A stretch of 64,000 bases of DNA from an uncultured Gemmatimonadales bacterium (GTDB lineage: Bacteria; Gemmatimonadota; Gemmatimonadetes; Longimicrobiales; RSA9): the NCBI GenBank assembly GCA_963741945.1, contig CAVUKA010000005.1, forward strand, positions 192,001 through 256,000. The letters run 5' to 3'. Each line of letters starts with the position of its first letter. Position 1 is the stretch's first letter. Positions 28,887 to 29,813 of the stretch are shown here, piece by piece. The translations under genes were made by a program, and so were the position numbers. The notes under the pieces are model-generated. The model had not been told where the DNA came from and searched no databases. It saw only the letters and a list, made by a program, of their open reading frames with translations.

Positions 28887-29288
28887 ATGACCATGACGAC
28901 AGCTTCCTACGCCATGGCGCGTACGCTCGACGTGCCTTTCGATGAGGCCGACCGGCGTGTCCGCGATGCGCTTCAGGCCGAAGGCTTCGGCATCCTGACC
29001 GAGATCGACGTCAAGGCCACCATGAAGAAGAAGCTCGACATCGACTTCCCTCGCTACGCCATCCTCGGCGCGTGCAATCCGCCGCTGGCGCACCAGGCCC
29101 TGCAGGCCGAGCCCGATATCGGCCTCCTCCTGCCCTGCAACGTGGTCGTTCGCGAACTCCCCGACGGCCGCACCATGGTCGAGGCCATCGACCCCGTCAT
29201 ACAGCTGTCCGTCGCCGACAACCCCGATCTCCCTGCCGTCGCCGAAGATGTGCGGCAGAGGATGCGACGCGCGATCGACGCCGTCTGA
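28887..29288 (+). CDS. DUF302 domain protein
   Basis: EGFGILTEIDV, YAILGACNP, IGLLLPCNVVV. Confidence 0.9.
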   Translation: MTMTTASYAMARTLDVPFDEADRRVRDALQAEGFGILTEIDVKATMKKKLDIDFPRYAILGACNPPLAHQALQAEPDIGLLLPCNVVVRELPDGRTMVEAIDPVIQLSVADNPDLPAVAEDVRQRMRRAIDAV

Positions 29289-29320
29289 ACCCCCGATCGC
29301 CCCTCACCACGGCCTCCCCG

Positions 29321-29368
29321 GGAAAAGAAGAAGCGCCGCCGGATCTCTCCGGCGGCGCTCCTCTTTCC
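29321..29368. terminator. Intrinsic terminator, probably bidirectional, with the stronger U-tract on the minus strand
   Basis: AGCGCCGCCGGA-TCTC-TCCGGCGGCGCT flanked by GAAAAGAAG on the left and CTCTTTCC on the right. Confidence 0.8.
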
Positions 29369-29441
29369 TGTCGCGATCCTGACGCGATGCCGCAATCGAC
29401 ACCCGCCGGTCTTCGGACAGCTCGCTGCGAATACCTTTCGG

Positions 29442-29507
29442 CTACGCGCCGATCAGGCGATCGCTTGCCCGTGTCAGGTCGCGGACAGTACTGGCACTTC
29501 TAGACAA
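29442..29507 (-). CDS. Candidate 21-aa small protein MSRSASTVRDLTRASDRLIGA
   Basis: TTG start directly after AAAGGAGGTGATCC, within an apparent promoter-to-terminator unit. Too short for the ORF track. Confidence 0.5.
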   Translation of the reverse strand: MSRSASTVRDLTRASDRLIGA

Positions 29508-29633
29508 GGATCACCTCCTTTTCTGAATGGCACAACGGGCGTTGGCACCAGCGGGCTTCCACCCGCGGTCCCGTAGCCGCGCCCCCTTGGGACGCCGGCC
29601 CTGGGCCCAGTCGCCGGTTCGGGCGACGCCACG

Positions 29634-29662
29634 AAGGTAGCGACGATCCGTTTCCTGCACAA
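29634..29662 (-). promoter_or_regulatory. Candidate sigma70 promoter for the small-ORF transcript
   Basis: Minus strand TTGTGC-N17-TACCTT. Confidence 0.45.
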
Positions 29663-29754
29663 GCTCTCGGACAACGATGTCCAGAATGGCGCGCACCTCC
29701 GCCCGATACCGCCCCGCTTCCCTCCCCACGCCCCCCCCGACCCTCCTCCCCGCC

Positions 29755-29813
29755 TTGACATCCCGGCCGCGCATCGGCATCTATCTAACCGGGCGGTTTA
29801 ACCATACAGTTAA
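29755..29813 (+). promoter_or_regulatory. Efflux operon promoter with tandem TetR-type operator palindromes
   Basis: TTGACA at 29755; TAACC-GGGC-GGTTTA (29786-29800) and perfect TTAAC-N6-GTTAA (29798-29813) just before tetR. Confidence 0.65.

Follow-up and report, generated by a model that had tools for sequence, protein, structure and literature searches.

CC2171 (RF01867) is a small RNA (sRNA) of Alphaproteobacteria. It was discovered in Caulobacter, a Northern blot detected it in Methylorubrum, it is predicted in Mesorhizobium, and its original description is reportedly that of Landt et al. in 2008. In the portions of the literature covered here, it figures as an expressed RNA of unknown function (bioRxiv 10.1101/2022.01.24.477521), as a prediction (PMC5596092) and as an entry given in a table only (the Rfam 15 paper, PMC11701678); an open reading frame (ORF) or a complementarity to 16S ribosomal RNA (rRNA) is nowhere mentioned in those portions. 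Here, we describe an RNA element of Gemmatimonadota that falls outside RF01867 by the score defining that family, yet appears by analogy to work like CC2171 and to belong with it in a wider undescribed class. The element lies in a 64,000-nucleotide (nt) stretch of DNA (hereafter, the window) from an uncultured Gemmatimonadales bacterium (assembly GCA_963741945.1, contig CAVUKA010000005.1, forward-strand positions 192,001 to 256,000), and it is an unannotated single-copy structured RNA gene found across many Gemmatimonadota and near-universal in the order of the window. No such RNA was among the matches listed in the literature on Gemmatimonadetes or Gemmatimonas sRNAs, and none is mentioned in the covered parts of PMC5082802 and PMC10117765. 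The reading that we favour, at somewhat better than even odds, is that of a ribosome-gated fold, meaning a stand-alone structured RNA in which ribosome loading and translation matter while the peptide is a by-product.

A first-pass annotation of the window, made from its letters alone, had pointed to a 14-nt perfect complement of the 16S 3' end followed by TTG and a short ORF, with no other rRNA sequence around it, and both statements are borne out. The plus strand reads GGATCACCTCCTTT at 29508-29521; on the minus strand this becomes AAAAGGAGGTGATCC, followed directly by TTG and by the ORF MSRSASTVRDLTRASDRLIGA* (29507-29442). The resulting 14-mer, AAAGGAGGTGATCC (29521-29508, minus strand), is the exact complement of the 16S 3' terminus of the same genome, which reads ...GCGGCTGGATCACCTCCTTT. 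In the 4.09-Mb assembly AAGGAGGTGATCC is present in two copies, one at the true 16S 3' end and the other in the element; the number expected from base composition is 0.01 for the 14-mer. It is the sole part of the element RNA with more than 9 nt of complementarity to 16S rRNA, and neither similarity nor complementarity to 16S extends past the 14 nt. Taken by itself, a test that tolerated two mismatches gave no significance, as one match was also reached in 21 of 100 shuffles. We nevertheless regard this docking site as beyond chance because it is conserved: the search of related genomes that the first-pass annotation had proposed shows motif, start codon and ORF retained, outside rRNA operons, in all 36 BLAST-matched relatives.

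These results bear on the most economical explanations. The motif is the same as the reverse complement of the 16S end, as it would be in a chance match or in the remnant of an rRNA operon; alternatively, the locus could encode a housekeeping RNA such as transfer-messenger RNA (tmRNA) or 6S RNA, the latter being favoured by the fact that 6S RNA (RF00013) has no match at E <= 1 in the genome, whose assembly is 96.7% complete. A remnant is at odds with a 16S similarity that stops at 14 nt, and neither a remnant nor chance would leave a conserved single copy outside rRNA operons; conservation and the 14-nt limit of 16S likeness refute both. A separate tmRNA (RF00023) sits elsewhere in the genome, at C1:225494-225860 (172.7 bits), and no Rfam family reaches its gathering score in the window. 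The element folds into a domain of hairpins on its 5' side and a terminator hairpin on its 3' side, not into a 6S-like rod, and 6S identity was rejected on this architecture alone, as sequence cannot rule out a very diverged 6S RNA. We give this group of explanations a negligible probability.

The 14-mer has the features of an extended Shine-Dalgarno (SD) sequence, within which AGGAGGTGATCC is invariant in alignment A1. None of the 36 BLAST-found relatives and none of the 50 loci found with a covariance model has less than GGAGGTG[AG]TC. The start codon is TTG in all 36 relatives; in the 50 loci it always lies 1-2 nt after GATC, being TTG in 36, GTG in 14 and ATG in none. The predicted energy of the duplex between this sequence and the 16S tail is -24.0 kcal/mol, compared with -8.7 kcal/mol for plain GGAGG. 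SD pairing functions in this genome, since SD 4-mers precede 34% of 667 confident starts over a background of 15-16%; AGGAGG precedes only about 2% of them. A second AGGAGGTGATCC occurs in the same genome, outside the window (G000 C4:183401, minus strand, locus L328), ahead of ggc-GTG and an ORF of 27 codons in that frame. Over the 400 nt from there on, 16 of 20 relatives show 66-87% identity, and we take this site, with its unusually long SD, for the probable beginning of an ordinary conserved gene.

The distribution of the element was assessed with several searches. BLAST with positions 29300-29700 gave a match in 37 of 41 relatives, including the genome of the window itself. The covariance model R1, which covers the core only and was built from 49 sequences, was applied to 151 genomes of the class and detected the element in 81, always as a single copy. 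In the order of the window it detected 37 of 39 genomes, distributed over three families (f1, 3/4; f2, 31/32; f3, 3/3); elsewhere, it matched 31/35 genomes in family f7, 9/28 in f4, 1/3 in f6 and 2/10, weakly, in f5, with no match in f9 (0/31) and f13 (0/4). An exact pattern retrieved 21 of 401 genomes of the phylum, a strong undercount given that GATCC, the start codon and the invariant block described below all vary slightly, and a gapped pattern combining SD, TTG and that block retrieved at least 118 stretches from a collection of species-representative genomes. Among the matches listed, 80 genome records were covered, in which every title naming a taxon refers to Gemmatimonadota (Gemmatimonadales or Longimicrobiales), three reading only "bacterium". 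Genomes G017, G020 and G026, which carry an unpublished flag, sit in several of our counts, and no conclusion depends on them.

The SD is followed by a mini-ORF of 21 codons that starts with TTG and ends with TAG at 29444-29442 (29442-29507, minus strand). Across all homologues examined the ORF measures 14-23 codons, and in the 50 model-found loci 14-22 codons, with TAA (20), TAG (19) and TGA (11) all serving as stop. Among 128 unique cores, 101 have 20 codons, 13 have 19, eight have 16, four have 21, and one each has 23 and 17; the frame is preserved in 127 of the 128, a regularity that neither of the remaining frames displays. The variable part differs in length by 3 nt in eight unique cores and by a number that is not a multiple of three in one. 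In the single core that departs from the usual frame (L034:3638-3867), 32 nt separate TTG from the invariant block, yet a 20-codon ORF stays open, with a different C-terminal half. The stop codon itself lies in the loop of a hairpin, TCGGC-GCGTA-GCCGA (29438-29452, minus strand), of which four of the five pairs show compensatory changes. Folding 124 unique cores one by one placed the stop inside a hairpin loop or at its edge in 96 of them; the stems differ in sequence, covary and all enclose the stop codon, and where TAA or TGA replaces TAG, one added base preserves the next GCCG stem. The conservation of start, frame, length and stop argues for translation of the mini-ORF, and apart from translation we see nothing that would keep any of the three stops in frame.

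These properties have to be set against the idea that the RNA is an untranslated binder of the 16S tail or of the ribosome, in which an oversized SD would act as a 30S decoy, a sponge or a protector from 5' decay resembling STAB-SD, the ORF being incidental. The complementarity of 14-16 nt indeed far exceeds what initiation needs, the start codon is a weak one in a highly structured RNA, and the assembly of this RNA from metatranscriptomes hints faintly at abundance. Such a function would leave unexplained why an in-frame stop, whichever of the three, sits in the loops of covarying stems, and why indels come in steps of 3 nt. It also fails to account for ORF length in metagenomes: a scan with the 21-mer that opens the CC2171 consensus returned at least 117 stretches, and among the matches listed all 102 unique loci carry an in-frame ORF of 14-29 codons, compared with 18 and 25 of 102 for the other two frames. 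Moreover, a single copy would titrate few ribosomes unless extremely abundant. An untranslated binder is accordingly, in our estimate, quite unlikely, with a chance of around one in eight.

If the mini-ORF is translated, the locus might be an ordinary small-protein gene, whose product is the peptide of about 20 residues and whose RNA structure merely tunes translation. Start, frame, length and stop are all conserved, as such a gene would require; the motif RASDR is invariant throughout the order of the window, and the N-terminal half is dominated by small polar residues (consensus M-S-S-P-S-T-x-x-x-L-A/T-R-A-S-D-R-R-x-G-x), the peptide of the window being polar as well. The exact 21-residue peptide has no match in a collection of 15 billion proteins, which shows merely that it is unannotated. 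The pattern of substitution, however, is that of an RNA. The excess of third-position substitutions expected of purifying selection at the peptide level was not found: in codons 2-8 of 119 sequences, the entropies at codon positions 1, 2 and 3 are 1.14, 0.96 and 1.04. Codons 12-16 (CGG GCA AGC GAT CGC) are invariant at all positions, including GCA and GAT, which are rare codons in this 70% GC genome. Invariant nucleotides thus underlie the invariant residues, and these nucleotides pair with the SD and the start codon. The residue changes seen in codons 8-11 (T/A, N/D/S, L/P) each represent one side of a base-pair change that is compensated in a 3' segment. Furthermore, sister families sharing the same 5' module have unrelated peptides (MSHCH..., MSFTKRCHLAGIAR, MSRVILERGVGTV...), and the 63-nt ORF is set amid about 230 nt of conserved non-coding RNA. 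Because substitutions track RNA pairing rather than codon position, they argue against a gene centred on its peptide, which we hold to be improbable, at about one chance in five; as judged from these alignments, the peptide appears free of protein-type selection and the constraint seems to lie at the RNA level. The first-pass annotation had proposed setting codon conservation against covariation, and the alignments show covariation but no coding-type pattern of substitution. It had also opposed a small protein to an RNA that traps 30S subunits. The ORF and the structured RNA are each supported, and what does not stand is the choice between them.

Within the first codons of relatives, serine codons that are rare in a 70% GC genome are frequent: TCT at codon 2 in 69, AGT at codon 3 in 86 and AGT at codon 5 in 89 of 119 sequences. 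The corresponding positions of the window are 29490-29504 (ORF codons 2-6), and the run is absent from the clade starting with GTG (hereafter, the GTG clade) and from the sister families. AGU is the sole strongly paused codon of Caulobacter in minimal medium, according to the portion of PMC4117421 covered here. Serine sensing through these three codons is a possibility that is not general to the class.

The fold of the RNA was evaluated on 39 pairs in 147 sequences. Of all cells, 93.5% are paired, a share that drops to 25-46% once the partners are shifted along the sequence, and the covariation score of 0.225 exceeds that of shuffled alignments (0.130), none of 500 shuffles attaining it. The RNA of the window has a folding energy of -165.7 kcal/mol and a minimum free energy (MFE) z-score of -6.62. 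Part of this fold is a long-range helix of 11 bp, whose 5' strand CGCGACCTGAC corresponds to ORF codons 8-11 (29473-29483, minus strand) and whose partner, GTCAGGATCGCG (29383-29372), is part of a conserved segment of the 3' domain, GGCATCGCGTCAGGATCGCG (29372-29391, minus strand), recognised by alignment and covariation. Nine of the 11 pairs show compensatory changes (for example, GC in 82 and AU in 60 sequences at one pair, AU in 74 and GC in 44 at another), 92.3% of cells are paired over the 147 sequences, and the predicted energy is -17.0 kcal/mol.

Just downstream of codon 11 lies a block, CGGGCAAGCGATCGCC (29456-29471, minus strand; ORF codons 12-17), whose columns are invariant in alignments A1, A2 and A4. 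Its GATCGCC is the 16S tail sequence GATCACC with one base changed and complements GGTGATC of the SD, and its CAAG complements CTTG at the start codon. RNAalifold predicts the resulting helix between SD and block, and the duplex of the block with SD and start has a predicted energy of -13.6 kcal/mol. In the GTG clade the same sequestering role falls to a different sequence, GAUCGCCUC, which pairs with GAGGUGAUC, and in metagenome clusters CCUGGAUCCUC and GCUGGGAUCGCC are the predicted partners; as modelled, SD sequestration thus appears to recur in related families with differing partner sequences. The invariant block also contains a palindrome, GCGATCGC (29458-29465, minus strand), that could permit RNA-RNA dimerisation or act as a DNA site.

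Upstream of the SD, a 5' domain of about 105 nt (29522-29627, minus strand) completes the RNA; it is conserved in family-level relatives, whose BLAST matches begin at query position 51-56. Both leader hairpins listed in the first-pass annotation are present, namely GTCGCC/GGCGAC (29627-29610) and ACCGCGGG/CCCGCTGGT (GCGGG/CCCGC, 29569-29547), and TGGGCC stands between them. The GCCC at 29540-29537 is a potential partner for GGGC in the invariant block, a pairing that 99% or more of 123 sequences allow. Three of the four pairs tested in the 5' domain are near-invariant, and alignment A1 and RNAalifold lend the domain support. As for the hairpins downstream of the ORF, the GCC-GAAA-GGT tetraloop of the first-pass annotation proved local to its own genome, the hairpin conserved in this region being the stop-codon hairpin TCGGC-GCGTA-GCCGA.

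From these elements, we propose the following mechanism for a ribosome-gated fold. In the free RNA, the 3' half of the SD (GGUGAUC) and the UUG start would be held in a helix by the in-ORF segment CAAG-C-GAUCGCC, and ORF codons 8-11 would be locked onto the 3' domain by the 11-bp long-range helix. The 5' half of the SD (AAAGGAG), left unpaired, would offer a foothold to the genuine 16S tail, whose 14-bp duplex with the SD (about -24 kcal/mol) would beat the internal duplex (about -14 kcal/mol), displacing it and exposing the weak start codon; in this exchange, a long SD duplex may trade speed for helix invasion. A single pass of translation over some 20 codons would then unzip the long-range helix and end at the stop codon held in its loop. 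The output would probably be the freeing of the conserved 3' (and 5') domains or an altered stability of the RNA, which would thereby report free-ribosome or initiation capacity.

Several points weigh against this proposal. The helix between SD and block is 99.9% paired and invariant, so that covariation cannot support it, and the single-sequence MFE structure of the window RNA has a local AAGGA/UCCUU hairpin in its place. The energy of SD sequestration is only moderately better than in mononucleotide shuffles, the mean z-score being -1.4 here, while two clusters from metagenomes give -0.4 and -0.8. Ribosome escape could also be hindered, not helped, if the SD duplex is very stable. Regarding conservation, model R1 includes the SD and start columns, which biases the 50 model-found loci to having both, and the alternation of TTG and GTG starts may trace to only about two lineages, the relatives not being independent. 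Finally, we infer transcription and translation in this organism from sequence, the contigs from RNA libraries described below being those of relatives and perhaps containing DNA.

The limits of the transcription unit proposed in the first-pass annotation agree with the conservation seen in relatives by BLAST and alignment, where a stretch of about 300 nt is kept; it opens with a -10-like TAnnnT, which precedes the SD by about 115 nt, and extends through the terminator. The element stands by itself as a unit of about 305 nt, from about 29627 to about 29321 on the minus strand. The TTGTGC-N17-TACCTT boxes noted earlier are present as a -35-like box, TTGTGC (29657-29662, minus strand), placed 17 nt from a -10-like box, TACCTT (29634-29639, minus strand), which would start the RNA near 29627. 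Equivalent boxes (TTGnnn-N16-18-TAnnnT) are found equally far from the SD in 76 of the 124 unique loci, and after shuffling not one of the 124 has them; a scan with the strict sigma-70 consensus called no promoter at the element. At the other end, the terminator with a U-tract recorded in the first pass holds up as an intrinsic terminator (29321-29359, minus strand) with a 12-bp stem (29359-29332), in which eight of nine tested pairs are compensatory, and a T-rich tail, TCTTCTTTTCCC. A simple terminator scan assigned 29332-29359 to the plus strand; the stem is common to the element and to the convergent DUF302 gene, back to back. A plus-strand transcript mimicking the anti-SD, also suggested at first, finds no support, promoter, terminator tail, ORF and covariation all being on the minus strand.

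A short ORF, alternative helices and a terminator are also the components of a leader-peptide attenuator, or of a cis-regulatory 5' leader of a downstream gene, and the three rare serine codons (TCT, AGT, AGT) within the first five codons, seen in the order of the window, would suit such a device. The surroundings do not fit it. In the window, the neighbours are the convergent DUF302 gene (28887-29288, plus strand), which is the next gene, and a divergent TetR gene. Among 137 loci the downstream gene is on the opposite strand in 71, on the same strand in 35 and missing in 31; the largest cluster of flanking genes comprises 26 of the 137 loci, and the families found elsewhere (AhpC-like, M50B peptidase, GcvH) belong to unrelated Pfam families and differ from the TetR of the window, with the reservation that flank ORF calls are crude in GC-rich DNA and that five of eight cluster representatives have no Pfam match. 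Because flanking genes are not conserved, the element is not the leader of another gene, and the serine-codon run is missing in the GTG clade and in the sister families. Attenuation is therefore a very remote prospect.

With regard to expression, contigs of 167-266 nt from four metatranscriptome runs, belonging to three studies of marine and sediment samples, match the copies of relatives over 29368-29555, and their ends extend into the terminator stem and the 5'-domain motif. These contigs stem from relatives and diverge outside the matched region, 29200-29367 and 29557-29800 being uninformative. They give a weak hint of a discrete, abundant RNA, strand and ends not being shown by contigs that may include DNA.

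The comparison with CC2171 can now be made in detail. It is the best sub-threshold Rfam match of the window, with 25.9 bits against a gathering cut-off of 75 bits; none of 21 relatives exceeds the cut-off (best, 29 bits), and five of 15 loci of the GTG clade score 28.6-34.8 bits. The first-pass annotation had counted a known Rfam family against its proposal; what the scan returned is a faint likeness, which points to a relative rather than to an explanation. The two RNAs share a 5' module, AAAGGAGGUGAUCC, followed by a near-cognate start and UCU: the Rfam consensus opens with GAAAGGAGGUGAUCC-A-GUG-UCU, the GTG-clade Gemmatimonadota carry the identical AAAGGAGGTGATCC-A-GTG-TCT, and the window has AAAGGAGGTGATCC-TTG-TCT. 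Provided that the 16S tails of those genomes match the present one, the start of the CC2171 consensus is a 16-nt complement of the 16S end. In both RNAs, moreover, the early ORF pairs just upstream of the terminator and encloses internal hairpins, as in the 29483-29473/29383-29372 helix. They differ in phylogeny (Alphaproteobacteria versus Gemmatimonadota), in the additional 5' domain of about 105 nt of the window element, in ORF sequence and internal hairpins, and in the start codon, TTG in the clade of the window and GUG in CC2171.

The metagenome loci extend this picture. Among the matches listed, they fall into clusters of 47, 21, 9, 4, 4 and fewer members. When 20 loci taken across clusters were scanned against Rfam, six from the MSHCH-type clusters passed the CC2171 cut-off (76.7-101.3 bits), with ORFs of 21-28 codons, and serve as a positive control; the scanned members of the clusters with ORFs of 14, 18 and 23 codons matched no Rfam family. 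Examples of these families without an Rfam match, among metagenome loci L211-L327, are L214, L221, L233 and L234; L265-L269; and L218 and L260. The 14-codon family numbers 21 of the listed loci and has, in the four scanned, a transfer RNA (tRNA) gene nearby on the opposite strand; the 18-codon family comprises nine loci with a GC content of 0.48-0.59, and the 23-codon family four. The exclusive position of the 21-nt module ahead of 14-29-codon ORFs in the listed loci suggests a dedicated class rather than mere strong ribosome-binding sites.

We offer, as a tentative generalisation that is less likely to be right than wrong, that the element is one lineage within a class of "ribosome-sensing" RNA switches that spans phyla, has the 16S 3' tail as its ligand and would include CC2171 and at least three families known from metagenomes only. 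The SD would be shut by an internal copy of the tail and opened through toehold strand displacement by the 30S subunit, and an ORF with a weak start and an irrelevant sequence would turn initiation capacity into refolding, so that the cell would measure free-ribosome, initiation factor 3 (IF3) or initiator-tRNA status and couple it to an output. If our reading is correct, a whole phylum has a so far unannotated RNA of housekeeping character, present in single copy, with the longest possible SD pairing at its centre. It would also provide a first structural and comparative handle on CC2171, which has reportedly been known since 2008, the two sharing a module made of a 16S-tail complement, a non-AUG start and a mini-ORF that is itself within the RNA fold. 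The questions raised are the role of SD duplexes of 14-16 bp, the sensing of free ribosomes by RNA and the translation of a "meaningless" ORF as a switch. In practice, the covariance model can serve the annotation of Gemmatimonadota genomes, and the element is a candidate natural ribosome-responsive RNA part.

Each trait of the element has a counterpart in other known systems, from which it differs in specific ways. Like tmRNA, it is a structured RNA with a short frame whose stop lies in a hairpin loop; tmRNA, however, has a tRNA-like domain and neither SD nor start codon, and a normal tmRNA is encoded elsewhere in the genome. In the cry3A mRNA of Bacillus thuringiensis, STAB-SD is an SD without a start codon that stabilises the transcript, and the strong SD in the 5' part of the present RNA could likewise hold a 30S subunit and protect the RNA. 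Start and ORF are missing there, whereas all 50 model-found loci of the element have TTG or GTG at 1-2 nt from GATC. The rpsU (bS21) mRNA of Flavobacteriia bears an extended SD that takes part in an autoregulatory circuit and offers another case of an exceptionally long, clade-conserved SD on one transcript in genomes where long SDs are rare; that SD precedes a normal ribosomal-protein gene and not a structured mini-ORF RNA, and the genome of the window makes moderate use of SDs. Type I toxin mRNAs such as hok and aapA1 have a sequestered SD and long-range locking, and resemble the element in placing SD and start in helices, in their long-range lock and in their short ORF. Their products are hydrophobic membrane toxins, encoded at loci that are often multicopy or mobile, with an antisense RNA as partner; the peptide described here is polar and its gene single-copy. 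The dual-function sRNAs with an embedded short ORF are represented by SgrS/SgrT, RNAIII/hld, SR1/SR1P and Spot 42/SpfP. To these, rnTrpL/peTrpL can be added as a further example (PMC10117765, in the part covered). The element resembles them as a short structured transcript with its own promoter, terminator and mini-ORF, the last presumably translated. In those sRNAs the peptide, the base-pairing role or both are known and the peptide is selected, unlike that of the element, whose defining feature is an SD of 14-16 nt that would be self-sequestered by a mimic of the 16S tail.

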